The notes under the pieces are model-generated. The model was not told the DNA's origin, searched no databases, and saw nothing but the letters and a program-made list of their open reading frames with translations. The position numbers and the translations under genes were made by a program. Shown here one piece after another: positions 8,254-31,350 of a DNA stretch of 50,531 bases. The DNA lies in the IMG/VR virus record IMGVR_UViG_3300044620_000612, positions 1 to 50,531 of that record, one strand, 5' to 3'. This stretch comes from a virus. Taxonomy: Duplodnaviria; Caudoviricetes. Every line of letters begins with the position of its first letter. Position 1 is the first letter of the stretch.

Positions 8254-8601
8254 ATGTTATCAGACATTATTAGCTTTGGTCAGCGCATTTGGGGTGAGAT
8301 CCAGCGTTCATCTCGTTGGCCATCCGTTAGAGCTAAATTCTTAAAGGGGAAATCCTGCTCTGCTTGTGGGACGAAAAAGAATTTGGAAGCGCATCATGTT
8401 ATACCACTGGCTCATGGTGGAGAGGAATTAGAAGAATCAAATCTAATTGGACTATGCCGTAACTGTCACTACTTCATTGGACATCTCCAAGACTGGACAA
8501 GTTACAATTGCGATGTTCATGCCGATTCTGCATCATATCTACAGAAGCATACTAATCGCCCAAAACTTATCCACCCGGAAGAAGATACGCCACTCATTTA
8601 A
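8254..8601 (+). CDS. HNH endonuclease (HK97 gp74-like, packaging associated)
   Basis: CSACG...EAHHVIP...GG...NLIGLCRNCH; ATG 8254 follows AAGGA. Confidence 0.85.
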   Translation: MLSDIISFGQRIWGEIQRSSRWPSVRAKFLKGKSCSACGTKKNLEAHHVIPLAHGGEELEESNLIGLCRNCHYFIGHLQDWTSYNCDVHADSASYLQKHTNRPKLIHPEEDTPLI

Positions 8602-11704: not shown

Positions 11705-13753
11705 CTACCTCAGCCGGGCAAATTGCACTCCGTTTACAGGCGCAATGGTTGCCATATCGTTTAGACTATCTTGTACTTCAGTAACATTATATCCACAATT
11801 AATGGCATCACGGATAAGTAAATCAACCAATTTCCTACCAGTAGATAGATATGATCCTATCCACCAGCGAATATCCATTGTTGGCGCATTTTGGACTTGG
11901 CCGGGAACAACATAATCATTCCCAGAATTGCCCATGCGAACATCTAATTCAGCAGGTATAACGCTATTCGATTTAGATACGAATAGCCGACGAATATTGC
12001 TGTTTGCCGGTTCGCCATCCACTCTGGACAGGTTAATCATTTGACGGCATTGGCCAACGATACGCCTACCCAGTGCTTCTCCACCAGAAGATAAATGCGT
12101 TACCATGACAATCGAGGTATTGGTTCTCTGGGCTATCTCAGCTAATGGCCGAAAATACTTAACACCATCCTCTGGGCGCATCGTGTTGTGACTTGTGCTG
12201 TTCATCACAGTATCAACAAAGACCAGACTAACCCCAATGCGCTTTATGCGATCTTCAAGCATTTTGAATTGATCTGGTTTATCCAGCATCGTTCCTTCCG
12301 TTGGATCGTCATTCCAGCCATTCAAATAGATGGCATCAGCTGGAATTCCAAACTGTTCGGGAAATTGGGCTATTTCGCCCCACTGATTGTCGCAGCATAA
12401 CCACAATACTTTTGATCCCTTATCCAGTGTTGGAGCAGTTCCATCCGGCCAAGGCATATGGTTATAAACACGCCTTGCCAAGTCAGCGCACAATCGAGTC
12501 TTACCAGCACCCGGTTCAGCAGCTATGCCAACTAGCACACCTCGTTGAATCCATCCCGGCCAAATCCACTGCATGGACTGCCCAAGGCGAATGAGGTCAG
12601 CAACAGTTGCATCGCTCTTATCTGCTGGAACAGTTTTAGTTGATTCGGAAATCGTCTGCTTTTTAATCAAACTACCAATTTTCGATTGGTCGATTTTTCC
12701 GGCAGCAGATGAAATTTTATGGGCTAAATCGCTATCGCTCCAAGGAGGTTGGCATCCCTGATTCCAATCACGAATAGCTGCAAGTGCGTCTGGTTCACTT
12801 AAACCAAAACCCTCCAACAGGATGGAGGCAACCCGATAAGTTTTGTTGTGGCCACTCTGCCCTGATACAGCTGGTTCAATATTTGAAATATACTTCTTAG
12901 CCAAATCCAATGGGCTTTTGACTGTGTCTTGATTAGATGAGTAAGCATTCTGCTCACGCCATGCCTCAACTAATTTCTGAATAGATTCAGTATTAGCTTT
13001 CCTCGCCTCTGGACTGGTATCGCCAACAGATACTATTCCAGTGCAACGCCAAGGCCTTTCAGCTGTAGAGTCGCCTTTTCGAGCCATTGTGCCGTACACA
13101 CGAACCATGCGCTGGACATCGAATGTAACCTTGTCGATCTTTGCGCCAGACGATATACACCTGCTACTTAGCTCAGAAAGGAATTCCTTTATAAGGTGAT
13201 CACTTGCTTTGTTGGCGGGCATATCCACTGGATAGAGCAGATGGCAACCATTGCCAGAATCGGCCTTGATTGGATCCCTGAAGCCGAATGCTTCCAATGT
13301 GGCGATTGCATCGTCTGCAAGCTCAAACGCTTTGCTGCGCTCAAATTCAGTGGCGGAAACATCGCTTGGCCGATTAGAATCACAGTCAATAAATAACCAT
13401 CGGCGTGAAATAGTTTCCTTTGAACTACTGGACTTAATCTTGGTTAGGAATGGCTTGCGCCAAACAGATTGATTTAGATTGGCCAGATCAGGATTGACCG
13501 GGTTAGAAACCAGATAGATTCCAACGCATTCGTTTTTAGAATCTATTTTGTGTACATCGGTTGCAACCGTTTCAGCATCCCGGCCAAAGTAGTATTGGTT
13601 ACGGCATATGCGGGAATCTTCATTCTGCGGGGAGCGTAGAAGAGCCCGAACCTCAGTGAGAGATTCGGGCTCAACCAGCAGGCGAATGGAATCGGCGATA
13701 CCAAAGATAGCCATCCTATATCCCTTCCAATCAAAGAATCTCTTCAGACTCAA
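11705..13753 (-). CDS. Primase-helicase (AEP-like primase + PriCT-like domain + RecA-fold AAA_25-like ATPase); start may be 13714
   Basis: FIDCD and DSGNGCH primase motifs; AVSGQSGHN...WNQGCQPPWS domain; Walker A AEPGAGKT, Walker B VFVDT. Confidence 0.85.
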   Translation of the reverse strand: MSLKRFFDWKGYRMAIFGIADSIRLLVEPESLTEVRALLRSPQNEDSRICRNQYYFGRDAETVATDVHKIDSKNECVGIYLVSNPVNPDLANLNQSVWRKPFLTKIKSSSSKETISRRWLFIDCDSNRPSDVSATEFERSKAFELADDAIATLEAFGFRDPIKADSGNGCHLLYPVDMPANKASDHLIKEFLSELSSRCISSGAKIDKVTFDVQRMVRVYGTMARKGDSTAERPWRCTGIVSVGDTSPEARKANTESIQKLVEAWREQNAYSSNQDTVKSPLDLAKKYISNIEPAVSGQSGHNKTYRVASILLEGFGLSEPDALAAIRDWNQGCQPPWSDSDLAHKISSAAGKIDQSKIGSLIKKQTISESTKTVPADKSDATVADLIRLGQSMQWIWPGWIQRGVLVGIAAEPGAGKTRLCADLARRVYNHMPWPDGTAPTLDKGSKVLWLCCDNQWGEIAQFPEQFGIPADAIYLNGWNDDPTEGTMLDKPDQFKMLEDRIKRIGVSLVFVDTVMNSTSHNTMRPEDGVKYFRPLAEIAQRTNTSIVMVTHLSSGGEALGRRIVGQCRQMINLSRVDGEPANSNIRRLFVSKSNSVIPAELDVRMGNSGNDYVVPGQVQNAPTMDIRWWIGSYLSTGRKLVDLLIRDAINCGYNVTEVQDSLNDMATIAPVNGVQFARLR

Positions 13754-14585: not shown

Positions 14586-16169
14586 TCATCGGTGAGAAAA
14601 ACGAGGCTTAGGCATTTGCCTGCTGGCAATATCCCCAATCCACTGGTTAAGTTCTGGCCTACTTGCACCAGACCCATCTGCAAACACTAGATGGCTTTTA
14701 GCTCTTGTCAGGGCGACATAGAGCAGATTCTTTTCCTGCTGGAAGGCCTCTTCGTCCTTCGCACGGATACACATTAGATCGGGGCGAAGCAGTGTAACAT
14801 TATCAGCCTCCAACCCCTTGGCCCTATGTATCGAGGATAGATTCACTTTGTTCACATCTTCCGATTCAGTGAATAGATCTCGACACAATGAAATCATCTG
14901 TTCGATTGTTTCGCACTCTTGAGACAGTTCCGTTATACATTCCACCTTATCTTTAAGAGCATCGAATGCAGTTTCATGGGCATCACGATCAAGCAGCTTT
15001 TTCTGCTCCCGTTCGTTCCATCGACCCAATCGGGAATGTAGATCCTTAATATCGAGAGGGTCAAGTTTAACAACCAGATTAACTATATCGTCTCCAATCG
15101 ACTTACCCTTAACAGCGCATGGTACTTTCAATCGCATAAGATTATAAGCTGCTCCAACGAGTGGGGCATTGTTTCGACAGATAATTAGATCGCCCGCCTT
15201 AGCCTGCCCAGCAAGAGCATATTTAGTTATCTGACTAATATCACCTTTAATCGCATCTGGACGGGCTTCAATATGCGGAACAAGCATACGAGCTAATTCT
15301 AGATGAGATGACGGGCAACGCCAGCAGACTGACAGGGGCATCGACTTGGCATCTAGCTGGTTGGTCAGATTTTTAAACGAGTGGGTATCTGCTCCAGCCC
15401 ATCCCATAATCGACTGGTATGGATCTCCCACTATAACTGTGTTGGCTGATACGCTGAGGATCAGTTTCTGCTGACAGGGATTAAAATCTTGGGCCTCATC
15501 TGCAAATAGCAAATCATAATCCTTATTTGCTATTCCAAGGCGGACAGGCAACCAGATCATATCCGCAAAATCCATCTCCACTATATGCTGCGGATCAGAT
15601 CCAATCTCAAGGATGTGAAACGCTGCACCAATAACTTCATCCACATACTGCTTGGCTGGAAGAGTAATACCTTGAATATCAGCAGCTTTGCAAACCTGAT
15701 CCCGTAGCACCTGAGTCAAGGTATCGACAGGAATTGCCTGACTACGAATCAGATTGATTAGAGCGAATAGGCTGGCCACTTCTGGACGCAACCAGCTTTT
15801 AGTTCCACGGGATTCGAAATAGTTTGGGTAGATAGCCTTGGCAATTTTTTGGTACTTCTTGCCGTATTGGTCAATTTGTAGGGACGGGATCTTGGATTTA
15901 ACCAGTCTCATGCCCAGTGAATGAAGAGTGGATGCTTGTGCCGATCCATCTAGCTTCTTGCCAAGCTCTTCGGCAATGGCTTTATTAAACGCAGTAAATG
16001 CAATCTTACCAAATTTCTTAGCAGCATATTTTGCAGCTTGGACAGCGGTAGTTGTTTTACCGCTGCCAGCCACAGCATTGACACTGATGTTCCCAGATTC
16101 AGTTTGGCGCAGCTTTTTATTGCCCGCTAGAATATCATAGATTGATTGTTGCTGAGCCGTAGGAATCAT
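14586..16169 (-). CDS. UvrD/Rep superfamily 1 helicase
   Basis: AVAGSGKTT, DEAQD, VGDPYQSI, WRCP, SIHRAKGLE, YVALTRAK. Confidence 0.95.
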   Translation of the reverse strand: MIPTAQQQSIYDILAGNKKLRQTESGNISVNAVAGSGKTTTAVQAAKYAAKKFGKIAFTAFNKAIAEELGKKLDGSAQASTLHSLGMRLVKSKIPSLQIDQYGKKYQKIAKAIYPNYFESRGTKSWLRPEVASLFALINLIRSQAIPVDTLTQVLRDQVCKAADIQGITLPAKQYVDEVIGAAFHILEIGSDPQHIVEMDFADMIWLPVRLGIANKDYDLLFADEAQDFNPCQQKLILSVSANTVIVGDPYQSIMGWAGADTHSFKNLTNQLDAKSMPLSVCWRCPSSHLELARMLVPHIEARPDAIKGDISQITKYALAGQAKAGDLIICRNNAPLVGAAYNLMRLKVPCAVKGKSIGDDIVNLVVKLDPLDIKDLHSRLGRWNEREQKKLLDRDAHETAFDALKDKVECITELSQECETIEQMISLCRDLFTESEDVNKVNLSSIHRAKGLEADNVTLLRPDLMCIRAKDEEAFQQEKNLLYVALTRAKSHLVFADGSGASRPELNQWIGDIASRQMPKPRFSHR

Positions 16170-16195
16170 AGTTAATTCTCCTATCCTATCCTGTT

Positions 16196-16930: not shown

Positions 16931-17212
16931 CTATCGCAGCAACTCACTCCGTAAAATACGAACATTATCCGACATGATTAGACGCAAGGATACTCTCCCG
17001 CCTTCTATTCTTTCCAGATAGATTGCATCACCATCAAGACCAATCGAATCATCGGGGAACAAATCATAGCGCACACCATCCAAGGTGAGGCGGGCAGAAC
17101 CATCTGGATTAATCATTTCAAATTTAACACGCCTATCCAATCCTCCTTTATATTTGAGTTGAATTTCTTCAGTCATTTTACGCATAATAACTAAGCCACC
17201 AATACGCTGCAT
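16931..17212 (-). CDS. csrA: CsrA/RsmA-like translational regulator with internal insertion
   Basis: N-terminal LVIMRKMTEEI and C-terminal IYLERIEGGRVSLRLIMSDNVRILRSEL match the CsrA strands and the R-E-E-L-type motif. Confidence 0.65.
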   Translation of the reverse strand: MQRIGGLVIMRKMTEEIQLKYKGGLDRRVKFEMINPDGSARLTLDGVRYDLFPDDSIGLDGDAIYLERIEGGRVSLRLIMSDNVRILRSELLR

Positions 17213-17829: not shown

Positions 17830-18070
17830 TTCCTTGTCCTTTCCTCGAATAGGATTCAATCAGGAATCTCAAATAGTTTTGGGCTTTTTGTAAATCCAAA
17901 ACCCCGTTTTTTTCTCGGAACCTGAATAGGTATTTGGTTATGCAGCCAACGCAATAGTCCTCAAATCCCTTCTGCCCAACAGCTGATTCAATTGCATTCC
18001 AGCAGCTGACTCCATCAATAGATTTAGATAGATAATAATCTGGATGGATTGGATTCACTGGCTCAGTCAT
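17822..18070 (-). CDS. DUF3310 (SaV-like) protein
   Basis: HPDYY...YCVGCITKYLFRFREKNGVLDLQKAQNYL. Confidence 0.85.
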   Translation of the reverse strand: MTEPVNPIHPDYYLSKSIDGVSCWNAIESAVGQKGFEDYCVGCITKYLFRFREKNGVLDLQKAQNYLRFLIESYSRKGQGND

Positions 18071-18632
18071 ATAAATACTCCCATTCGATTCCTGATTCCT
18101 GAATAGCTTCACGAATATTCTGTATTGCCAACCGCTTGAGTTCAGTCACATTGTGGTAATGGATTCCTCGCTCCTTAGCGATCTCGCCATGAGATAGACC
18201 ATCCAGATGACGCAGGATAATCTCCCGGCGTTTGCCATCTATCATATTAATCAGTTTGTAGAGAAAATCCTTGTTATATTGCAATACTTCCGAGTCTTCT
18301 AGATCGATTCTATCAGTACAGGATGCTTGAGCTATCACTGAAGATGGATCATCATTATAGCATGGGCGGACTTTGCTAGACCGAATAACTCCTCGACGCA
18401 ATGTCATTCGGCAGAAATGGAATCCCCTAACAGCATATGTGGAAAATCTACATCCACTTGGATCGTATGTGGTAGCTGCTTTCCATAATGCTATCAGTAG
18501 TTCAGACTGATACTCATCATAGGTATAGCCCTTAACTTCTGGATACCTACCCATGTAGAATCCAATTAAACCCAGATTTTCATTAACGAGTTCCTCGACT
18601 GTCCGTGTCCTATTCTCGTCAACCTTCGCCAT
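18063..18632 (-). CDS. Sigma-70-family sigma factor 1
   Basis: Region 2 NLGLI...LWKAATTYDPSGCRFSTYA; region 4 HTH GLSHGEIAKERGI. Confidence 0.85.
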   Translation of the reverse strand: MAKVDENRTRTVEELVNENLGLIGFYMGRYPEVKGYTYDEYQSELLIALWKAATTYDPSGCRFSTYAVRGFHFCRMTLRRGVIRSSKVRPCYNDDPSSVIAQASCTDRIDLEDSEVLQYNKDFLYKLINMIDGKRREIILRHLDGLSHGEIAKERGIHYHNVTELKRLAIQNIREAIQESGIEWEYLYD

Positions 18633-18760
18633 CGTCCTATCTCCTTTTAATTACTGCTTAACTGTGATAGCCACACAACTATCCTTGCTTTGGTATGTGG
18701 CAGTTACTGAAACCTCAATTGGTTTAGGCATAGTTGAATGCCTTGATGATTGGCAACCTA

Positions 18761-19010: not shown

Positions 19011-19724
19011 TCATACATTTGATTGCTCCTGTTGCAATTTGTTTTGCCACCTAAACAGCTTATTTTTTATGTACTTGTTTCTGGCCTTACACTCCCTGCA
19101 CCTTAAATTACGATTGCGATTCAACATACTAATCTTGCAGCTGTATTCGCATCCACAGTCCATGCACAGACCTATCTGGGATATAAGCTCATCTGTGGCA
19201 TACTCTTCTGACATACGCTTGATAGCCTGTCGAACTGCTTCACGGGTTATGCCCAGCCCCTTACCAATCTGCTGTAGTGTTTTACCCTGCAATATCCCTT
19301 CACATATAGTTTTCCTTTTCCCAGTAAGTCTACTGATTAGATTGTGAATTGAATCCTTATTTTCTATATTGAATGATGGATCTTTAGCTTTCACATCCTC
19401 GACCATATCGCAGACTGGCACATCGGCTTTTTCTGAAATATGGTTGAGCGATACATGGGTGTGCTTTTTAGCCTGATTGATTACCCATGATCGTTTATGC
19501 AGAACTAAACGAAACATGAGAGTAGATAGCTTTCCTTTCTCTGGATCGTAATACAGGATAGTTTGAACTAAACACGACAGAACCTCTTGATACCAATCCT
19601 CATCATCAAACCCCATTGGGCATTTTACTTTTTTAGAGAAAAACTTAGCTAACTTTATATTATCATTGAATAGCTTGTGCCCTTCGCAAGTCATCTTCCC
19701 ATCAATTGCAAATGGCGATAACAC
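19011..19724 (-). CDS. Sigma-70-family sigma factor 2 with C-terminal zinc ribbon
   Basis: YDPEKGKLSTL region 2; GKTLQQIGKGLGITREAVRQ region 4; CMDC...CREC. Confidence 0.85.
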   Translation of the reverse strand: MLSPFAIDGKMTCEGHKLFNDNIKLAKFFSKKVKCPMGFDDEDWYQEVLSCLVQTILYYDPEKGKLSTLMFRLVLHKRSWVINQAKKHTHVSLNHISEKADVPVCDMVEDVKAKDPSFNIENKDSIHNLISRLTGKRKTICEGILQGKTLQQIGKGLGITREAVRQAIKRMSEEYATDELISQIGLCMDCGCEYSCKISMLNRNRNLRCRECKARNKYIKNKLFRWQNKLQQEQSNV

Positions 19725-19981
19725 TAGAATAATTCCTTTCTACGCTGGAGCCCCAATTTTGAGCCCTGAGCCACTGTTTTGCCAAACTTGGGCAATACCT
19801 CAACGAAGTAGTCTAAACCGTCTGTAATGCAAAATTCAGAGGCATTGCGGGCAAGTTTGTAGGCCTCAGTCTCGCATTTCGTCAGTCGCTGCTTCTGGAT
19901 AGTCTTTCCATCACGCCAGTAGCGCAGTACGACTAGAAACGAATCACCATGAATTGGTGGCATGATTAGACCTCCTGCCAA
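19724..19981 (-). CDS. Hypothetical protein
   Basis: Operon-coupled ORF. Confidence 0.55.
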   Translation of the reverse strand: MAGGLIMPPIHGDSFLVVLRYWRDGKTIQKQRLTKCETEAYKLARNASEFCITDGLDYFVEVLPKFGKTVAQGSKLGLQRRKELF

Positions 19982-20250
19982 ACTGCTGAAGTGGCAGCTA
20001 TTTCGTCTATGAGATTGGCAGCTGCTAGTTCAGCATTAACCATAGCAGAGATGCAACAATCGTGTTCAGACTGAGATGCTTTAGATCTGCTGCCTAAGAA
20101 CCAAACCATTTGAATGTATTTCTTAGTTACAACGCATTGGTAAACACAAAGCATTATTTCGTCTTCTCTGACGATTCCTCGCTTAGTTAAGCTGGTAATA
20201 CTGGCGCAAATGCCATTACCTGACGGATTAACATTCCAATTGATCTTCAT
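19966..20250 (-). CDS. Hypothetical protein, first gene of the leftward operon
   Basis: AGGAGATAGGACA leader before ATG. Confidence 0.65.
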   Translation of the reverse strand: MKINWNVNPSGNGICASITSLTKRGIVREDEIMLCVYQCVVTKKYIQMVWFLGSRSKASQSEHDCCISAMVNAELAAANLIDEIAATSAVWQEV

Positions 20251-20300
20251 TGTCCTATCTCCTCTTTCCTTTGCGTCGAACTTTGTTGTTCGATGATTTA

Positions 20301-22631: not shown

Positions 22632-22651
22632 AAGCTTTGATATCAAAGCTT
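22632..22651. repeat. Perfect 20-bp palindrome AAGCTTTGATATCAAAGCTT
   Basis: Self-complementary. Confidence 0.9.
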
Positions 22652-22701
22652 TTTCAACTTCCTTTCCCTTCCCTTCCTTTGGTTTTCTTTCCCACCCTTA
22701 T

Positions 22702-22731
22702 ATACTATCGGTTTAAATGCTTTACTTGCAA
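22702..22731 (-). promoter_or_regulatory. Leftward sigma-70-like promoter with no downstream ORF
   Basis: TTGCAA-N18-TAGTAT. Confidence 0.45.
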
Positions 22732-22817
22732 GTCTTTATAAGGCAAGATAGCAATATTAGACTTTTTTGTTTTTTTCTCTTTTTTTTACTTTTTTTCTTT
22801 TTTATTGTTTTTTTGTG

Positions 22818-22846
22818 TTGACAAGTAAAAAAGCATACGATAGTAT
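22818..22846 (+). promoter_or_regulatory. Strong early sigma-70 promoter P1
   Basis: TTGACA-N17-TAGTAT preceded by long T tracts. Confidence 0.85.
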
Positions 22847-22898
22847 TAAAGAAGACAAGTAAGAAAGCTTGTCAGCACAAAAGGAAAGGAAGTGGATT

Positions 22899-23093
22899 AT
22901 GGAATATACCGCAGACATGAAAGTACTTCAAGTTGCAACCGCCTTGAGAATCCAAGCCAATACAGGCTTAAAGCATTCTAAGGGTAGTGTATTAAAGCTT
23001 GCCAAAGCCTTGTATCTAGTGAAAGGTAATACAGCCCGCCAAGTACTAGAATCAATGAAAGAATGCTTTTCTAATATTCCAAAGCATTGGTAA
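22899..23093 (+). CDS. Early hypothetical protein
   Basis: ATG follows the AAGGAAAGGAAGTGGATT leader. Confidence 0.75.
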   Translation: MEYTADMKVLQVATALRIQANTGLKHSKGSVLKLAKALYLVKGNTARQVLESMKECFSNIPKHW

Positions 23094-23105
23094 AATACTA
23101 GGCTT

Positions 23106-23134
23106 GGGGGCTTGCCTTAAAAAAGCCCTTTTTT
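23106..23134 (+). terminator. Rho-independent terminator
   Basis: GGGCTT/AAGCCC stem followed by a T run. Confidence 0.65.
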
Positions 23135-23172
23135 GTTTTTTTTCTTTTTTTTTACTTTTTTTGTTTTTTCTC

Positions 23173-23201
23173 TTGACAAGCTTTTGAGTGTAGCATATAG
23201 T
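23173..23201 (+). promoter_or_regulatory. Strong early sigma-70 promoter P2
   Basis: TTGACA-N17-TATAGT with upstream T tracts. Confidence 0.85.
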
Positions 23202-23251
23202 AATAACACAAGGCAAAAAGCCTTGGGAACCAAAAGGAAAGGAATTGGATT

Positions 23252-23467
23252 ATGACAAGGCAAGAGGTTATGGCAAGTGAAGGCTTTGTTATTACTTGGG
23301 ATACCAAAGAATTACAAGAAAGCTTCGAAGTATTAGGCTTTTGCCTAGGCTTTTGTGGGGTTAAGTGTCGAAAGACTGGCAAGCTTGGGAGTCTTTCTTT
23401 TGATAGGTATCAAATAGATGATAAGGCCACAAGGCTTTATCATTCTTTGGTGTGGGATTCCAAGTAA
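23252..23467 (+). CDS. Early hypothetical protein
   Basis: Leader motif; WDTxELQxxFEVLGF...GxLGSLxF...RLY pattern. Confidence 0.75.
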   Translation: MTRQEVMASEGFVITWDTKELQESFEVLGFCLGFCGVKCRKTGKLGSLSFDRYQIDDKATRLYHSLVWDSK

Positions 23468-23490
23468 TTAAAAGGAAAGGAAAGTGGATT

Positions 23491-23778
23491 ATGGAAAGTA
23501 AAAAGCTTTTTTGGGGTGCGGATCGTAGGGTATCCAATATGGTAATACCCAAGTCTTGGGATGGTATAATCACGCAAAATGGCGATCGTATTACCTTTTC
23601 TTTTATTCAAGAGGATCCCAAGACTTACCTAGTCTTTGGGTACTTATCATCTTTGCTTGAAACGCAAAAAGACTATAGGCTTGTGACAAGAATGCCAAAG
23701 TCTTTACTTTTCAAGCTTTTTGGCGATAAGGAAGCCTTTTTGTTCTACTGTGACAAGCTTTGGATTGAAACCCGATAA
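23491..23778 (+). CDS. Early hypothetical protein
   Basis: Leader motif before ATG 23491. Confidence 0.7.
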   Translation: MESKKLFWGADRRVSNMVIPKSWDGIITQNGDRITFSFIQEDPKTYLVFGYLSSLLETQKDYRLVTRMPKSLLFKLFGDKEAFLFYCDKLWIETR

Positions 23779-23794
23779 GAAAGGAAAGTGGATT

Positions 23795-24184
23795 ATGCGC
23801 AATGAGAAAAGGATCAAAGAGGTTCTTGATAGTACTTTGCAAAAGCACTATGTCAAGGAAGCTTTCAGACTTTTAGAATTAAAAGATTTTTCTTTTGAAG
23901 AATTTGAAACCCTTTTGATAAGTACTTGTAAAGTGGCTAAGGGTATCGTATCTTTCAAAAAAGCTTATAATGGGCCAAGTGAGCTTACAAAAGTCTTTCT
24001 TGTGGTCTGGCATGACAAGCTGAGGGAAGACGGACTAAAAAAGCAGCTTGGAAGCTTTTATAATACTTTTGACTTTTCAAGGCAGACAAGCTTTTACTGC
24101 TCTGCATTTGACTTTCAATTATATTTAAAGGCTTTAAGCCTTGTAAGTCTTTTACGGTCTTGTTTTGGTATGGAAGTAAAATAA
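23795..24184 (+). CDS. Early hypothetical protein
   Basis: Leader motif before ATG 23795. Confidence 0.7.
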   Translation: MRNEKRIKEVLDSTLQKHYVKEAFRLLELKDFSFEEFETLLISTCKVAKGIVSFKKAYNGPSELTKVFLVVWHDKLREDGLKKQLGSFYNTFDFSRQTSFYCSAFDFQLYLKALSLVSLLRSCFGMEVK

Positions 24185-24205
24185 ATAAAGGAAAGGAAGT
24201 GGATT

Positions 24206-24925
24206 ATGGAAGGTAATAGGTTGGCATTTGCGGTAGAAGTAAGTGAGAACAAAAAGGTGGGCTTGTCGTCTGGCACATATGCTAGCCAAGTGAGTACTTG
24301 CCCCGATTCTTGCCCCTTAAAGCCTACCGTTGATAGTAAAGGTAAGGTAATAAAGACCAATGGCTGTTATGCCAATGGCACTATGGTTGCCATGCAAAGC
24401 GCAAAGCTTAACCAAGCCCCTAGGCAAAGCCCAAGAGAAGCACAAAGGCAAGAGGTAAAAGCTATTGAAGGCTTGACTGGTAACCTAGACTTGCGAGTTC
24501 ACATAGTGGGTGACTGTGTTGACGATACCCATGCAAAAGCCTTGTCAAAAGCTATGTTAGCACATAGGCAAAAGAAAGGCAAAGCAGCTTGGACATATAC
24601 CCATAATTGGCGCAAAATAAAGGCTTCAAGCTGGCAAGGGGAAAGTGTATTGGCAAGCTGTGATAGTCTAAGTCAAGTAAAAGAGGCTAAAAATCTTGGC
24701 TATTCTTCAGCTGTAATAGTAGACTCTTTCGATAGTCAAAAAGTATATGTCAAGGATGGTATCAAGCTTTTGCCTTGCCTATACCAAACAAAAGGCATTC
24801 AGTGTGTTGATTGTAGGCTTTGCTTGGATAGTCAAAAGCTTTCAAGGCTTGGGCTTACCATAGCTTTTGTTCCGCATGGCGGGGGTAAGGCAAAGGCTAG
24901 AATCTCTTTGGGTATGGTATCCTAA
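24206..24925 (+). CDS. Cys-cluster early protein (gp88/DUF7227-like, radical-SAM-related)
   Basis: TCPDSCPL...GCYA, LRVHIVGD, WTYTH, ASCDS, CxxxxxxxxCVDCRLC. Confidence 0.7.
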   Translation: MEGNRLAFAVEVSENKKVGLSSGTYASQVSTCPDSCPLKPTVDSKGKVIKTNGCYANGTMVAMQSAKLNQAPRQSPREAQRQEVKAIEGLTGNLDLRVHIVGDCVDDTHAKALSKAMLAHRQKKGKAAWTYTHNWRKIKASSWQGESVLASCDSLSQVKEAKNLGYSSAVIVDSFDSQKVYVKDGIKLLPCLYQTKGIQCVDCRLCLDSQKLSRLGLTIAFVPHGGGKAKARISLGMVS

Positions 24926-24946
24926 CAAAAGAAAGGAAAGTGGATT

Positions 24947-25228
24947 ATGTTGCCCTACTCTGTTTTAGTGAAGTACTTGCCACCAACCGATTGCAAGGGT
25001 AGTAGGTTGAAAGCCTCTTGTGATGGTAAAAGTATTACAATTGGCTTTGATAATTCTTTGAATATTGATAAGAATTTTGATAATGCTTGTTTGGCTTTAA
25101 TTAAAAAGCTTGGCTTTTTTAAAGGAAGCTTAAGCCAATATTACCTAACAAGGGGAACAGTAAAAGAAAGGGAAAGAGTATACTCTTTCCACAGTTTCCA
25201 CACAAGGCTTGAGATTCCAAAGTATTAA
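24947..25228 (+). CDS. Early hypothetical protein
   Basis: Leader motif; KYLPPTDCKGSRLKA pattern common in phage early genes. Confidence 0.75.
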   Translation: MLPYSVLVKYLPPTDCKGSRLKASCDGKSITIGFDNSLNIDKNFDNACLALIKKLGFFKGSLSQYYLTRGTVKERERVYSFHSFHTRLEIPKY

Positions 25229-25235
25229 CCAAAAC

Positions 25236-25266
25236 AAAAAGCCTTGGCGCGGGCTTGGGCTTTTTT
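25236..25266 (+). terminator. Rho-independent terminator
   Basis: AAAAAGCC...GGCTTTTTT. Confidence 0.7.
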
Positions 25267-25304
25267 CTTTTTTTTCTTTTTTTTACTTTTTTTATAATTA
25301 AGCC

Positions 25305-25333
25305 TTGACAAGCTTTTGCCTATGGTATATTCT
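25305..25333 (+). promoter_or_regulatory. Strong early sigma-70 promoter P3
   Basis: TTGACA-N17-TATTCT with upstream T tracts. Confidence 0.8.
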
Positions 25334-25386
25334 TTAATTACAAGCCTAAAAGAAAGGCTTGAAACAAAGGAAAGAGGAAGTGGATT

Positions 25387-25599
25387 ATGAATATTCTTAT
25401 CGTAGTGCCAGCCTATGGTCGTGACTATAAAAGCCAAAAGGAAGTAAAGGAAGCTTGGGCACAAGGCAAAGACTTTATAATAGCTTCTATGCATTCGGAT
25501 GATTATGGCCGATATGTAAACAATGAAGATGCACCTAAAAAAAGCTATGTTAACATACGGTTTAAGAAAGGGGCTGGATTAGTTGTAATAAAGACTTAG
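25387..25599 (+). CDS. Early hypothetical protein
   Basis: Leader motif; PAYGRDYKS...WxxGKDF pattern. Confidence 0.8.
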   Translation: MNILIVVPAYGRDYKSQKEVKEAWAQGKDFIIASMHSDDYGRYVNNEDAPKKSYVNIRFKKGAGLVVIKT

Positions 25600-25610
25600 G
25601 CTAATATTAT

Positions 25611-25660
25611 AAGGCTTGGCTTGGTAGCCTTTAAGCTTGGTTCGATCCCAAGCAAGTCTT
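25611..25660 (+). ncRNA. Miniature tRNA-like element lacking an anticodon arm
   Basis: AAGGCTT/AAGTCTT acceptor-like stem, GGCT-TGGT-AGCC D-like hairpin, GCTTGG-TTCGATC-CCAAGC T-arm. Confidence 0.55.
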
Positions 25661-25710
25661 TTGCCCACTTTGGGCTTTTGTAGGGTAATAGGATAAAAGG
25701 AAGGCTTGCC

Positions 25711-26160
25711 ATGAAAGTTAAAAAAGATTCTTTCATTCTTTCCATAGTTGAACGCACGGTAAAAGAATGTGAAAGAGAAGGAACTAATTGGGGTGAAGTA
25801 ATAGACGATAGGCTTGAAGAAAATGGTATAGAATTGCATGACGATAAACCCGATGGTAGGGATCATAATATAATAGCAAGGCTTGCCGATGGCAGGGAAA
25901 TATATTGTGAGACGGACGGAAGCGGAAGCTTGGGAATAACCAATAAATACTGGCATTACAATTATGAAATAGAAGGCCTAGAAGGAAGTGAAGATACCGT
26001 TACAGCTCGTAACCTATCGGAAGCCGTAAGAATTGCCAAAGATTGGCTTGGTGTAAAGTACTTAGCAAGCTTAAAGCTAACAAAGCCTTCAAGCCTTTGG
26101 GTAAGCGGTCCCGATGGTGAACATGGTGAGACGATTACAATCCAAAGCCTTTTAAAATAA
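25711..26160 (+). CDS. Early hypothetical protein
   Basis: AAGGAAGG RBS; 149 aa. Confidence 0.7.
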   Translation: MKVKKDSFILSIVERTVKECEREGTNWGEVIDDRLEENGIELHDDKPDGRDHNIIARLADGREIYCETDGSGSLGITNKYWHYNYEIEGLEGSEDTVTARNLSEAVRIAKDWLGVKYLASLKLTKPSSLWVSGPDGEHGETITIQSLLK

Positions 26161-26181
26161 ATAAATATAAATAATAATATT

Positions 26182-26216
26182 AAAAAAAGCCTTGCCTAAT
26201 AAGCTTGGCTTTTTTT
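26182..26216 (+). terminator. Rho-independent terminator ending the early module
   Basis: AAAAAAAGCC...GGCTTTTTTT. Confidence 0.75.
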
Positions 26217-26514: not shown

Positions 26515-27063
26515 ATGAATAAGGACATCCTTGGCCTTGATCCTGACTCTGGAAAGTTAATTAAAAATAAACCGGCTAAGGGACCAGCTGGATTAAAGAC
26601 AAGTCATGTAATTAAGAATCTAACTAATGCCGAAATAATTGAAGCGATAACAAAGTGTCGAGGACTCCTATATCTTGCCTCAAATGTATTGAGCGTTAAT
26701 TACCAGACACTTGCTGAGCGGGTTAATAACGATCCCGAATTACAAGACGCAGTCAAGGATCAACGGGGTAAAACCCTTGACATGGCTGAAGCCAAATTGA
26801 TGCAGGCAGTCGATAAGGGAGAGCAATGGGCAATCACCATGCTCCTCCGTACTCTGGGGCGTGAGAGGGGCTTTGTGGAGCGTCAAGAGGTATCCAATGT
26901 AACCACAGTCCGGCTGCAAATAGTCGAGGAAATTGTCGATTCTAATCAGAAGCAAATTGCCGTAACAGTTAATCCGACAATCGACTATCGGCCAAACTTG
27001 CCAGAAGGATTCAGCGATGCCAAGACCGAAGGGGCCGAGCTTGAAGGCGAGTATGACGGCTAA
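26515..27063 (+). CDS. terS: Terminase small subunit
   Basis: HTH followed by LDMAEAKLMQAVDKGEQWAITMLLRTLGRERGFVERQE; immediately upstream of TerL. Confidence 0.8.
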   Translation: MNKDILGLDPDSGKLIKNKPAKGPAGLKTSHVIKNLTNAEIIEAITKCRGLLYLASNVLSVNYQTLAERVNNDPELQDAVKDQRGKTLDMAEAKLMQAVDKGEQWAITMLLRTLGRERGFVERQEVSNVTTVRLQIVEEIVDSNQKQIAVTVNPTIDYRPNLPEGFSDAKTEGAELEGEYDG

Positions 27064-29218
27064 AAAGCCGGTTGAAACAATCAGTAAGACCTTCAAGCTA
27101 CATCAAATTCAATATGATTTTCACCATTCCCAAGCCCTGTATCGAGGATTTGTGGGTGGCATCGGTTGCACCGCTCCAGAAACTCTTCTGGGCGGTATAC
27201 CAATTGGCGATCTTACTTCTTCTGGGGGAGAATGCCGGACTCTATTAGGTGACGCTCTAAGATCACCATCTTTCTGTAAGGGGAAAGCTGATCTTTATCG
27301 AGTGACAATGGAATCAGGTCGAGAGGTAACGGTAACCTTAGCCCACCGTTTTCTAACGCCAGAAGGCTGGATTCCTCTGAGCAAATTGCGTATCGGCTCT
27401 TTATTAGCTGCTGATGGTAGCGAAGATGCGATTCGTGACTTGGGAAAACCCATAGATTTGAAGGGTGATTATTGGCGGGGACTTCATCGTGATGATGTAC
27501 AGTCTCACCCGATTCAAGCATTCTATTTAGACAAAATTCAGCAATCCTTCGAGCGAATTTCCGGCAATCGCTCCATTCAATCTGGGATTTTCCACCCTTC
27601 CATTGGCGATTCTTTGGCCCAGAAGCATTGCCAGCCTTCCTCATCTGGAGAGTCTTATCATGCTTCAACATTCTCCTGCGTATCACTTCAGCATCAACAC
27701 TATAAAGCCTGCCCAAATCAATCGTTGACATTCCTTCCTTATATTGACAAACAACCTGATCCATTGGCAATTGATGAATTGGATTCCTTGCGCCCCTTCC
27801 GGCAAACACGCCATTCCTCCGAAGAACTCTTGAAACTTGACTTTGACCAATGCCAAGTTGAGCAGCAACAATCTTCTGATTTTTATGGGCATTCCATAAA
27901 TCAACCACAATATTATCCATATAGCCTCCGAGAGTGCTTAGGTTCAATTACTTATACTAATTCATTCTGGGACAAAGTTCAAGATATATCATTTATAAAA
28001 CATGGTGATTTTTATGATTTAACGGTTCCCGGTCTTGAGCATTATTCTGCTGCTGGGCTTTATCACCACAATAGTGGAAAGTCATGGGTTGGAGCTTACG
28101 ATTTGCTACGCCGGGCGATGAGTGATGATGGCAAGGGCCGCCTCTACATGGTCATTTCCCCGACCTACAATATGCTCCAAGACGCAACCATGCGAACAAT
28201 CAACCAGTTGGGAGAAGAATTAGAAATAATCCGAGAGAAGTGGAAACAGCCTCCCCGCCTTGTTCTTACAAATGGATCAGAAATTATCTTCCGTTCCGGT
28301 GACGATCCAGACAAGCTACGGGGGCCAAACATTAGCGGAATCTGGATGGATGAAGCCTCGATCATGGAGGAAGAGGTATTCAATATTTGCATTGGTCGTT
28401 TGCGGGAAGGCGGAAAAGCTGGATGGCTAACATCAACCTTCACGCCCAAGGGAATGAGCCATTGGACTTACAATGTATTCGGCAAAGGGGATCGTGAGAA
28501 CACGGAGCTATTTAAATCCAAGACCTCCCAGAACCCGTTTCTTGCTGGAGAGTTCATTAAGGCAGTTTCCAAGCAATATTCAGACAAGCAGGCGAATCAG
28601 GAATTAGATGGCGAATTCGTCGATCAGGAGGGCGCAGAGTGGCCATCCGCCCATTTCGGTGAACATATCTGGTTTGAAGAGTGGCCTGTAAATTCCAACA
28701 TTAAAATCAAAACTATGTCAGTTGACCCGTCCAAAGGTAAAGATGCACGGCATGGGGATTATACGGCAATTATTAAATTAGCCCGTGATAATAACGGAAT
28801 CATCTATTGCGATGCCGAATTGAAGCGCATGGATGCCGAAACAATGGTAGCCAAGGTGGTGGCAGAGGCTGAGGCATTTGAGCCGGATGGCCTTGGAATT
28901 GAAACAAACCAATTCCAGCATCTACTAGCTACGCAAATACTTGAAGAATCAAAAAGGCAAGGAAATGCTATTCCAATCATGCAAATCTATAATAATATAA
29001 ATAAAGATGTGCGTATTAGGAGGCTGGGGCCATACCTCGCCAATAAACTAATTCGATTCAAGCGTAGTGAAGGCACTCGACTCCTTGTTGCACAGCTGCG
29101 TGAGTTCCCGCTTGGGAAACATGATGATGGGCCGGATGCCTTGGAAATGGCATTGCGGACTATGATTTCCATCTGGAATGGCAAGCGGGCTCCACTGGCA
29201 AGAAGGATAATCGCATGA
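27017..29218 (+). CDS. terL: Terminase large subunit interrupted by an intein (start may be 27053)
   Basis: Walker A GGIG|SGKS split by the insert; LRGPN...WMDEAS Walker B; VDPS and HDDGPDA nuclease motifs. Confidence 0.95.
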   Translation: MPRPKGPSLKASMTAKKPVETISKTFKLHQIQYDFHHSQALYRGFVGGIGCTAPETLLGGIPIGDLTSSGGECRTLLGDALRSPSFCKGKADLYRVTMESGREVTVTLAHRFLTPEGWIPLSKLRIGSLLAADGSEDAIRDLGKPIDLKGDYWRGLHRDDVQSHPIQAFYLDKIQQSFERISGNRSIQSGIFHPSIGDSLAQKHCQPSSSGESYHASTFSCVSLQHQHYKACPNQSLTFLPYIDKQPDPLAIDELDSLRPFRQTRHSSEELLKLDFDQCQVEQQQSSDFYGHSINQPQYYPYSLRECLGSITYTNSFWDKVQDISFIKHGDFYDLTVPGLEHYSAAGLYHHNSGKSWVGAYDLLRRAMSDDGKGRLYMVISPTYNMLQDATMRTINQLGEELEIIREKWKQPPRLVLTNGSEIIFRSGDDPDKLRGPNISGIWMDEASIMEEEVFNICIGRLREGGKAGWLTSTFTPKGMSHWTYNVFGKGDRENTELFKSKTSQNPFLAGEFIKAVSKQYSDKQANQELDGEFVDQEGAEWPSAHFGEHIWFEEWPVNSNIKIKTMSVDPSKGKDARHGDYTAIIKLARDNNGIIYCDAELKRMDAETMVAKVVAEAEAFEPDGLGIETNQFQHLLATQILEESKRQGNAIPIMQIYNNINKDVRIRRLGPYLANKLIRFKRSEGTRLLVAQLREFPLGKHDDGPDALEMALRTMISIWNGKRAPLARRIIA
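27213..27920 (-). CDS. HTH-HNH homing-endonuclease-like protein encoded antisense inside the intein
   Basis: Two HTH-like segments, GPKNRQWKGG, ETVHHHDEVPANNHPSNL...HLRYH; GGAGG 4 nt before ATG 27920. Confidence 0.85.
   Translation of the reverse strand: MDNIVVDLWNAHKNQKIVAAQLGIGQSQVSRVLRRNGVFAGRGARNPIHQLPMDQVVCQYKEGMSTIDLGRLYSVDAEVIRRRMLKHDKTLQMRKAGNASGPKNRQWKGGKSQIEWSDCRKFARRIAEFCLNRMLESGETVHHHDEVPANNHPSNLWVFPSHESHLRYHQQLIKSRYAICSEESSLLALENGGLRLPLPLDLIPLSLDKDQLSPYRKMVILERHLIESGILPQKK
27954..27982 (-). promoter_or_regulatory. Promoter candidate for the antisense HNH gene
   Basis: TTGAAC-N17-TAGTAT; -10 box ends 34 nt upstream of the ATG. Confidence 0.55.
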
Positions 29219-31350
29219 ATACTTGGCAGAAAATCATCAATTTCCTTCTTCCGCCAAAACCTACCGGAGAGCATGGCAAGCGTGTCAAGAGGAACTTGCG
29301 TGAAAATGTACTCACGAATGATTTTTGGCTTGGCAATTATGTCGATCTTCTCGACCGTTTCCGTGATGGAGGCGTGTTCGCTTATCCAATCTCGAATCCA
29401 CAGGATCGGCGTTACGGATCGAATTTCCCATTCTGGTACTCAGAGCAACAGTTATCTATTATTCGGGCTCAAGCCCGGCTTGTTACCACTACGAATCCAA
29501 ATGCAATTGGACTCCTTAACGGATTATGCAGTTATGTCATTGGCAGTGGATTCAATTACCGTGTTGCCCCAAAGGGAACAATCGAGATCGACGAATCCAC
29601 AGTGCGACGATGCCAAGATGTACTCGACAGATTCCTGAATGAGAACGAATGGGATTTGATGGAGGACGAGATTTTCAAGCGTTCCCGAACTGATGGCGAA
29701 TGCTTCCTCCGTCTGTTCCCTCAACCTTCTGGACGGTTATTGATTCGCACAATTGAGCCAGAGCAAGTCTATCAACCACCCGGTGAAGACTTCGCCCATT
29801 GGTCATATGGAATTGAAACTGACCCAGACGATGTATTTAACATAATGAATTATTACATCGACTATAACGCTCCAAAGGGCGAAGAGGAGCGGGATGCCAC
29901 TGCTGGAAATGTAAATGGCGAAACAGTACCAGCCGATAGGATTATCCACATCAAGTGCAATGTTCCAAAGGCAATTAAGCGAGGATTGTCAGATTTTAGC
30001 TACGATACGCTAGATACATTTTCAACTTCGGCCAAGCTACGCAAGAATTTGGGAGAAGGCGCATCAGTTCAATCGGCAATTGCTGCTGTACGCCAGCATG
30101 ATGCAGCGTCTGCGTCTCAAGTTGAGGCATTTGTCGATGACATGATCGATTATTCGGTGGCCAATGCACCAAGTGGGCGACAGACAGATTATCAGCGTAT
30201 TGAGCCGGGTACATTCTTAGACATTCCAAAGGGAATGAATTATGTTAAACCACCCGGAGCAGATAGCGCAAAAGATCATCTGGAGATCTTCCAATCGCTA
30301 CTTCGCTCAGCTGGCAATCGACACAATGCGCCAGAGTGGCTATCTTCGGCCAATGTGGCTGGGGCAAACTATGCTTCCAGCTTGACGGCTGAATCTCCAT
30401 TCCTTCGCAACTGCGTTAGGATGCAGACATTCTACCGACGATACTTCTTGCGGATTGCCCGTGAAGCAATTCGTACTGCTGCCGAGATGGGTACTCTGCC
30501 AATCAACATCTTGGATGTTATTGATGTTATGGTCACTCCTCCAGCAGTAGAGGCCCGTGACAAGATTGCTGATTCTCAAGCTAACCAGACATACATGACA
30601 ATGGGTATTAAATCTGCCCAGACAATCACTCAAGAGCTTGGCCTTAATTTTGACGCAGAACAGCGCAACATTGAGCAGCAAGCTGAGAAGATGGCATCTG
30701 AAATTGCACCCGGTCAAGAGGATTCTTCCCAAGTGTCTGATTCTGCTCTGAACGGGTTGCAAATTGAGAATCTGGTAGGAATCGTCATGAGGGTAGCAAC
30801 TGGGCAGATTCCAGTTGAAGTTGGCAGATCAATTGCGTCTGCTGCATTCCCATTAATGCCTCAAGACCAGATCAATGCCATTTTCCCTGAATCGCTACAC
30901 GGGACGCAAGAGTTGCCTCCTCACTCCGCTGGACGGTCAGATCCAACGGGGCAAGATCCAATGGCTGAACAGCCTGAAGATCCATTACAGGTAGCTCCAG
31001 TGCAGGAGTCTAATGACGAAGGTAAATACGGCCACATAACTTTCACGCCTCCTGATTCAGTGCGTAAAGCTGCCAAGCGTGGATTAGAACTAAGGAAGAA
31101 GTATGGGCGAGGCGGAACTGCAATTGGCGTAGCCCGTGCAAGGGATCTAATGAATGGTGCAGAACTATCTCCATCAACCATTAATCGCATGGTTAGTTAC
31201 TTTGCCCGTCACGAAGTGGACAAGAAGGGCGAAGGATGGGGCAAAGATTCAGCTGGGTACATTGCATGGCTATTGTGGGGTGGAGACTCAGGAAAGTCTT
31301 GGGCAAGCAAAGTTTCCAAGCAGATGGATGCAGCGGATAAAAAGAAATGA
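29215..31350 (+). CDS. Portal protein (lambda-like) with C-terminal extra domains
   Basis: Follows TerL; DGECF, IIHIK...RGLS, ANYASS motifs. Confidence 0.85.
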   Translation: MNTWQKIINFLLPPKPTGEHGKRVKRNLRENVLTNDFWLGNYVDLLDRFRDGGVFAYPISNPQDRRYGSNFPFWYSEQQLSIIRAQARLVTTTNPNAIGLLNGLCSYVIGSGFNYRVAPKGTIEIDESTVRRCQDVLDRFLNENEWDLMEDEIFKRSRTDGECFLRLFPQPSGRLLIRTIEPEQVYQPPGEDFAHWSYGIETDPDDVFNIMNYYIDYNAPKGEEERDATAGNVNGETVPADRIIHIKCNVPKAIKRGLSDFSYDTLDTFSTSAKLRKNLGEGASVQSAIAAVRQHDAASASQVEAFVDDMIDYSVANAPSGRQTDYQRIEPGTFLDIPKGMNYVKPPGADSAKDHLEIFQSLLRSAGNRHNAPEWLSSANVAGANYASSLTAESPFLRNCVRMQTFYRRYFLRIAREAIRTAAEMGTLPINILDVIDVMVTPPAVEARDKIADSQANQTYMTMGIKSAQTITQELGLNFDAEQRNIEQQAEKMASEIAPGQEDSSQVSDSALNGLQIENLVGIVMRVATGQIPVEVGRSIASAAFPLMPQDQINAIFPESLHGTQELPPHSAGRSDPTGQDPMAEQPEDPLQVAPVQESNDEGKYGHITFTPPDSVRKAAKRGLELRKKYGRGGTAIGVARARDLMNGAELSPSTINRMVSYFARHEVDKKGEGWGKDSAGYIAWLLWGGDSGKSWASKVSKQMDAADKKK

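Follow-up and report, generated by a model that had tools for sequence, protein, structure and literature searches.

A purine-only leader repeated at seven start codons of a lake-water phage: a candidate translation-initiation cassette and recombination joint of a putative early module

A leader repeated at seven start codons

The window analysed here is the whole of IMG/VR virus record IMGVR_UViG_3300044620_000612 (50,531 nt; CheckV completeness 100%), and its subject is a purine-rich leader of 22–25 nt, of the form AAAGGAAAGGAA(A)GTGGATT followed by ATG, that stands ahead of seven start codons between 22899 and 25387 (Table 1). Searched at up to one mismatch, GGAARTGGATTATG has seven copies, found on the plus strand only and each ending in an ATG (22899, 23252, 23491, 23795, 24206, 24947 and 25387). 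At up to two mismatches there are 10 matches against 1.05 expected, a count reached in 0/100 shuffles, and the leader's upstream half taken alone (AAAGGAAAGGAA, up to one mismatch) is matched 8 times against 0.62 expected, with five of these matches at the seven leaders. A repeat search independently recovered a 7-copy, 25-nt direct-repeat family at the same sites. All seven copies abut the ATG that opens an open reading frame (ORF) of 64–239 amino acids (aa); the proteins so preceded are not paralogues of one another (lowest pairwise BLASTP E-value 0.11), and a Pfam family, DUF7227, is recognized in only one of the seven. The shared leader described at these start codons in the initial annotation, which was made from the sequence alone, is thus borne out at a copy number far above chance, and the GGA leaders quoted there for the leftward genes are likewise present (AGGAGATAGGAC before 20250 and 18632, AGGATAGGATAGGAG before 16169). 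Rfam returned no family at gathering thresholds, its two matches at E ≤ 1 lying far under their cut-offs.

The seven leader genes form three transcription units (operons), each opening with one of the three copies of a 93-nt promoter-cassette repeat that contains T-tracts, TTGACA, a 17-nt spacer and a −10 hexamer and that scores 10–11 out of 12 in a promoter scan. Predicted 5′ untranslated regions (5′UTRs), drawn on the assumption that transcription starts 7 nt past the −10 element, each begin with a hairpin of 6–7 bp in the minimum free energy (MFE) fold, and two of the three folds leave the purine-only leader unpaired, the third nearly so. Inside operons, the intercistronic space consists of a stop codon and the leader only. 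A function of the leader as a promoter element was considered and is ruled out, as it abuts the ATG inside operons and lies downstream of separate −35/−10 pairs.

Table 1 Positions of the leader copies, promoter cassettes and other features of the window
Feature	Position	Strand	Remarks
Pyrimidine tract, complement of leader core	22655..22680	+	minus strand reads as a GGA-rich run
Promoter cassette P1	22762..22854	+	T-tract upstream region, TTGACA at 22818, 17-nt spacer, TAGTAT; repeat family D1; scan 10/12
Hairpin at 5′ end of predicted P1 transcript	22854..22873	+	7-bp stem in MFE fold; leader unpaired
Leader copy 1 and ATG	22880..22901	+	gene 22899-23093, 64 aa, no family
Promoter cassette P2	23128..23220	+	TTGACA at 23173, TATAGT; then 5′ hairpin 23209-23225
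Leader copy 2 and ATG	23233..23254	+	gene 23252-23467, 71 aa
Leader copy 3 and ATG	23471..23493	+	gene 23491-23778, 95 aa
Leader copy 4 and ATG	23776..23797	+	gene 23795-24184, 129 aa
Leader copy 5 and ATG	24187..24208	+	gene 24206-24925, 239 aa, DUF7227
Leader copy 6 and ATG	24927..24949	+	gene 24947-25228, 93 aa; leader and gene missing together in contig L028
Terminator-like hairpin (25239-25256), then promoter cassette P3	25239..25352	+	TTGACA at 25305, TATTCT
Leader copy 7 and ATG	25366..25389	+	gene 25387-25599, 70 aa
Leftward GGA-repeat leader AGGATAGGATAGGAG...	16170..16190	minus	before UvrD-like helicase gene 14586-16169
Leftward leader AAGGAGATAGGACG	18633..18650	minus	before sigma-like gene 18063-18632
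Leftward leader AAAGGAAAGAGGAGATAGGACA	20251..20272	minus	before gene 19966-20250
P0001, 93-aa all-beta protein	16931..17212	minus	small phage-only family; distant sub-threshold CsrA likeness in both halves
Terminase large subunit with intein	27017-29218		Pfam; Intein_splicing at residues 88-352
Lambda-type portal	29215-31350		Pfam
UvrD-like helicase gene	14586-16169	minus	Pfam
AAA_25 primase/helicase-like protein	11705-13753	minus	Pfam
Sigma-70-like ORFs (two)	18063-18632, 19011-19724	minus	weak region 2 and region 4 Pfam matches

Complementarity to 16S rRNA and retention among relatives

Duplex energies were computed with generic 16S rRNA 3′ tails, either 13 nt long or extended by UUUCU; rankings cover 73 called genes, which include six of the seven leader genes (the gene caller missed the one at 25387). 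With the 13-nt tail the leaders form duplexes of −6.8 to −10.1 kcal/mol, and with the extended tail −10.4 to −14.4 kcal/mol, 8 + 3 bases being paired around one A–C mismatch; for comparison, the median is −7.0 kcal/mol for the 73 called genes and −3.8 kcal/mol for random 24-mers. The GGAAG core of the leader, at −11 to −7, sits at normal Shine-Dalgarno (SD) spacing. Complementarity to the generic tail thus falls where that of an SD is expected (5–9 nt upstream of the start codon), and the leader stands directly ahead of its carrier gene's start codon in 7/7 cases. Among the 66 genes lying elsewhere in the genome, the start-upstream regions are most enriched in AGGAG (15), AAGGA (12), GGAGA (11) and AAAGG (9), and this enrichment indicates that the host reads a canonical SD; the leader is made of the same words as the phage's other start regions and therefore draws on the house SD vocabulary. 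Together, the duplex energies and the spacing of GGAAG account for most of the leader's centre, GGAAAGGAAGTG, by anti-SD pairing.

Relatives of the window allow the leader to be followed both where genes have been exchanged and where they have diverged. An exact-pattern scan of viral contigs found one with several leader copies (L028), 91–96% identical to the window. There, gene 1 is replaced by an unrelated 74-aa ORF with the same leader ahead of it and the same terminator after it, and leader 6 and gene 6 are missing as one unit, so that the leader bounds two cassette differences between the two sequences. In three contigs from a metagenome scan (L150, L154 and L156), the early genes are orthologous to those of the window, with ORFs 63–72% identical in nucleotides and 53–74% in amino acids. 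Before the four orthologues seen, GGAAAGGAAG(T/C)GGA is kept 4/4, as is the GGA at −5 to −3 (4/4): one leader is identical at 18/19 positions, and the departures in the remaining ones are a one-base indel, a T→C substitution or changes to the two final bases. The sequence at −59 to −20 ahead of these genes is 53–67% identical. Because the leader is retained before diverged orthologues, the comparison suggests that it is under purifying selection, with a modest margin. A further contig (L004/L110) shares the window's backbone at 87–91% and carries a gene 97% identical to that for P0001, the CsrA-like protein considered below; its early module is entirely different, with leaders of the GGATAGGATAGGG type plus one GGGAGAGTGGATTATG.

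The early block (22.6–26.2 kb) also stands apart in composition. Its GC content is 0.37–0.39, compared with 0.41–0.52 elsewhere in the genome, and 25 of the 26 genomic copies of AAGCTT lie inside the 3.6 kb from 22632 to 26201, with one in the other 47 kb; the sites in the block are spread across all three reading frames and non-coding DNA. AAGCCTT and AAGGCTT are likewise concentrated there (22/28 copies), and the diverged relatives of the block are AAGCTT-rich as well (L150, 10 copies; L154, 16; L156, 9). Just upstream of the first early promoter, the non-coding segment 22598–22700 contains GGGGTGGTGTG repeats and a perfect 20-bp palindrome (22632–22651); the pyrimidine tract listed in Table 1 is retained in L028 and absent from L154 and L156. 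In L004, GGCCCTAGCCTGT is repeated in tandem about nine times in the non-coding DNA between the leftward and rightward modules (reverse strand, ~8440–8560 as printed), and nothing similar is present at the window's equivalent place.

The P0001 protein and the GGA-repeat leaders

P0001 belongs to a small family: 5.8 billion clusters yielded 3 close relatives and 1.84 billion representatives another 5 that are more distant, and further copies lie in related viral contigs. It has no Pfam match at E ≤ 0.01, and a six-frame search of the genome found no CsrA (PF02599) at E ≤ 10. Compared with the CsrA profile itself (PF02599), P0001 scores 13.7 bits (E = 0.064), under the gathering cut-off of 27 bits, its residues 65–92 falling on profile positions 21–48; across the family, CsrA is the top weak (sub-threshold) Pfam match in 10 of 11 members, with a best E of 1.7e-4. 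Profile searches of the PDB with P0001 gave no CsrA chain at E ≤ 10, and neither P0001 nor its relatives matched a PHROG at E ≤ 0.01. The AlphaFold2 monomer model (predicted local distance difference test score 74.8, predicted template modelling (TM) score 0.65) has nine strands and no helix, and so lacks the architecture of CsrA, an intertwined homodimer whose subunits of ~60 aa have five strands and a C-terminal helix. No CsrA is among the matches listed by Foldseek for this model against the PDB, the best being FAIM-NTD (E = 0.064, not significant), and a fold search of BFVD returned only unnamed viral proteins of ~85–97 aa at TM scores of 0.5–0.6. In a protein atlas, CsrA is annotated on 27% of the members of the cluster ranked third (score 0.80), which we take as a lead only.

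Dividing the family alignment at residue ~47 does bring out a likeness to CsrA. Of the two parts, the N half (6–46) aligns with CsrA 1–36 at an hhalign score of 23.5, which 0/270 column shuffles reach, and the C half (48–93) with CsrA 3–49 at 18.2, reached by 2/270. Between them, hhalign and Pfam place residues 6–20 on CsrA 1–14 and 65–92 on CsrA 21–48, at probabilities of only 12–64%. R11, R85, R88 and E90 are invariant across 17 family members, and the motifs GGLxISR and GGRxxxRxIxxDxxRIxRxEL, which hold the family's invariant residues, correspond in the alignment to CsrA beta1 and beta4–beta5; R88 aligns with CsrA Arg44, a residue that a review describes as essential for RNA binding (PMC7366521). 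An internal repeat test of the N half against the C half of P0001 was not significant (18/150 shuffles reach the score), and, with E. coli CsrA as the only target, hhalign aligned 13 columns of the whole family at a probability of 4%. With a narrow custom CsrA hidden Markov model (HMM), 5/11 family members beat at least 99.8% of shuffled sequences, and the score of P0001 itself was matched or beaten by 163 of 3300 shuffles. We consider a CsrA origin of P0001 about as likely as not; given such an origin, the protein would look like two CsrA-like halves in tandem and not like a standard subunit. The phage CsrA homologue that the initial annotation had placed at 16931–17212 therefore stands as an ORF with a weak, consistent remote likeness, and falls short as a homologue at the Pfam cut-off, in the PDB search and in the fold search.

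Multi-GGA leaders, defined as those with two or more GGA in the last 22 nt, precede 20/73 genes here, 15/71 in G001, 13/65 in G002 and 11/21 in L110, and 5–17 genes per locus in six further loci with a family member. Altogether they precede 121/392 called genes in these ten family-positive genomes or loci, compared with 95/948 in 69 unrelated viral control loci that contain no P0001 family member or CsrA (a ~3-fold difference, the rate in individual control loci reaching 57%). In the window they cluster at 10–26 kb, which is where the non-structural genes lie, and the P0001 family gene itself has a multi-GGA leader in 7/7 loci listed. Since all family-positive phages belong to one related clade, and probably share a host group, the link between the gene and GGA leaders is an association and not independent evidence. 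The seven-copy leader in particular is not tied to the CsrA-like gene: no copy within one mismatch was found in five relatives in which the gene is present (completeness of at least 90% in four), and the L004/L110 contig has its 97%-identical gene beside a different early module. A second stereotyped leader, (A)AGGAGATAGGAC(A/G)ATG with close variants, stands before many small non-structural genes across the clade (in L110, L118, L119, L124 and L157, and in the window at 18633–18648 and 20251–20266), and anti-SD pairing does not explain its start-proximal GGA.

Readings of the leader and its genomic setting

The most economical reading of this evidence, and the one we prefer, sees in the leader a stereotyped cassette for translation initiation that belongs to an exchangeable early module, is maintained by selection on ribosome loading and doubles as a recombination joint; we judge this somewhat more probable than its negation. 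Each small, presumably early ORF would be expressed from one of three near-identical units, composed of an intrinsic terminator, a T-tract upstream element, a sigma-70-type promoter and a 5′ stabilising hairpin, and would begin behind the same unstructured purine-only leader. This leader would drive translation through its centre, acting as a long SD complement placed ~6 nt before the ATG, with a fixed GATT spacer behind it, and its sequence would be held constant by selection for uniform, efficient ribosome loading. Because it is common to all units, it could also work as a homology joint, used by recombination where ORFs are gained, lost or replaced. Both alternatives that the initial annotation had set beside translational repression by a phage CsrA are accordingly better supported than repression itself: strong start-associated sequences, by SD-type complementarity at the correct spacing, and anchors for cassette shuffling, by the two L028 break-points at the leader. 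The question raised there of whether anti-SD pairing explains the motif fully receives a divided answer, in that pairing covers most of GGAAAGGAAGTG and leaves over the avoidance of GGAG, the GGA at −5 to −3 and a strength that is only moderate.

These leftovers are among several points that weigh against a translation-initiation cassette. The leaders are not the strongest SDs of the genome, the best of them ranking 11th of 73 with the 13-nt tail, and all seven avoid GGAG, the commonest SD word elsewhere, using GGAAG or GGAAAG, which is odd if ribosome affinity alone were selected. The invariant GGA at −5 to −3 is too near the ATG to act as an SD, and start-proximal GGAs recur in the clade (12/73 genes here compared with 32/948 in control phage loci). 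The host's own 16S 3′ end may, moreover, differ from the generic tails used. Regarding retention, the ungapped leader identity to the diverged orthologues is 57/76, and the excess over the flanks is modest unless 1-nt indels are allowed. As for the recombination joint, just two cassette events were observed, and any replacement between conserved flanks would break at those flanks.

An operator for P0001 would account for the features that SD pairing leaves over. Under this explanation, the seven leaders and the GGA-repeat leaders of the clade are sites where the protein binds GGA over the ribosome-binding site (RBS) and, on accumulating, lowers early translation, a function comparable to that of T4 RegA but exercised through an RNA-binding surface of the CsrA type. 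This explanation draws on the recurrence of CsrA as the top weak match in the family, on the alignment of both halves beyond nearly all shuffles, on the clustering of invariant residues in the beta1- and beta5-aligned segments (including R88 on Arg44), and on the excess of multi-GGA leaders in family-positive phages, their clustering at 10–26 kb and their presence before the family gene itself. Set against this are the sub-threshold Pfam score, the lack of CsrA in the PDB profile search and among the listed Foldseek matches, the shuffles that equal or beat P0001 on the narrow HMM, the five gene-carrying relatives with 0 leader copies, the 97%-identical gene beside a different early module, the confinement of the association to one related clade, and the 6-nt separation of adjacent GGAs, a spacing largely explained by anti-SD complementarity. 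We regard such operators, and with them translational control by the CsrA-like protein, as an unlikely, minority explanation. A more specific version, to which we give still less credence, is that P0001 founds a single-chain tandem CsrA-like family in which two CsrA-derived halves are fused. The only RNA-binding surface kept, a composite of beta1 of the first half and beta5 of the second (the two most conserved segments of P0001), would read the clade's GGA-repeat leaders and time non-structural translation. Among the targets of the protein would be the leader of its own gene and all seven early ones; the host may have no CsrA itself, and the GGA-rich minus strand of the tract at 22655–22680 could be a decoy for the protein.

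Less likely than CsrA-like control are two further explanations. The identity of the leaders could be mainly historical, the copies being recent products of recombination or gene conversion among cassettes of a single module type, with no exact sequence required beyond an ordinary SD. The block at 22.6–26.2 kb does have its own composition (GC content, AAGCTT) and is swapped wholesale in the backbone relative, the promoter cassettes are themselves repeats, and the cassette differences break at the leader; yet the core and all three GGAs persist where coding sequence has diverged by ~30% and upstream intergenic sequence has fallen to 53–67% identity, and such retention argues for purifying selection, contrary to a pure history of copying, which we hold to be quite improbable. 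By analogy with phage T4, the leader could also be cleaved or bound by another factor, whether a host protein or an endoribonuclease of the phage, and early mRNAs would thereby be inactivated at their RBS. The T4 RegB/S1 target is described as an 11-nt single-stranded site with an invariant 5′ GGA in early-gene SD regions (PMC1702504; PMC3014915), a GGA-containing, A-rich element used for early-gene shut-off (PMC1702504), and the leaders, too, are rich in GGA and in A, single-stranded, and confined to the promoter-proximal early block. They contain no GGAG, however, and do not fit the published 11-nt consensus GGAGRAYARAA; the complete genome has no homologue of RegB (PF10715) or RegA (PF01818) at E ≤ 1, and no candidate nuclease was found among the ORFs scanned. 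A RegB-like target accordingly seems to us the least probable of these explanations.

In its organization, the block resembles the host-takeover module of the Bacillus phage SPO1, with many small, mostly orphan early genes in several short operons that have their own strong host-type promoters. Stewart et al. are said to have noted, in 1998, that the SPO1 module has unusually strong ribosome-binding sites. The present case differs in that one exact ~22-nt leader is reused seven times, without a GGAG core and with a third GGA at −5 to −3, and in that the phage is unrelated to SPO1, whose module is described as 26 genes in operons with predicted promoters (PMC6873191). T4 RegA, which is reported to compete with ribosomes at the initiation regions of ~30 phage mRNAs (PMC3014915), exemplifies the type of mechanism that the initial annotation had proposed; its operators are A+U-rich and variable, unlike the fixed GGA-repeat sequence of the leaders here. 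With CsrA/RsmA, P0001 shares small size, a beta-rich composition and an N-terminal GGLxISR and C-terminal RIxRxEL that align with beta1 and beta5; it differs in its 93 aa (CsrA, ~60 aa), its nine predicted strands, the missing C-terminal helix and fold match and its scores under every curated threshold, and in possibly being two CsrA-like halves in tandem, where CsrA is a homodimer. Canonical csrA is already common in phages, with 88 records in our searches and a reported 30/2517 phage genomes (PMC7366521); in the literature on CsrA in phages, nothing like a single-chain regulator of the P0001 type was found at the level of titles and abstract beginnings.

If the leader is a house-style RBS cassette and nothing else, it still permits precise start-codon calls for orphan early genes. 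It would also show how lake phages package early host-takeover genes, each ORF with its leader, and exchange these units, and it offers a compact, portable expression element. Were P0001 in fact a regulator of the leaders, this would be a case of a phage turning the CsrA fold into a single-chain protein that acts on the phage's own GGA-rich leaders; a third mode of post-transcriptional control of early genes would join T4 RegA and RegB, and the known structural range of the CsrA family would widen.

Beyond the leader, DNA near-identical to the window is present in 24 lake-water metagenome runs, among which no RNA datasets are listed, and the window has no DNA match among 50,697 deposited phages. 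Bacterial genome contigs scanned with the P0001 family and the putative capsid protein yielded no relatives, the window contains no tRNA genes, and HIP1 (GCGATCGC), considered as a hint of a cyanophage, has 0 copies in it. The two sigma-70-like ORFs point, through their weak domain matches, to a phage that redirects host RNA polymerase once the early phase is over. L028 lacks the equivalent of window 27168–28074, so that the terminase intein is missing there, which suggests an intein-free allele. Finally, a 1109-aa ORF at 91–3420 matches the YadA-head repeat and probably encodes a tail fibre or adhesin-like protein.

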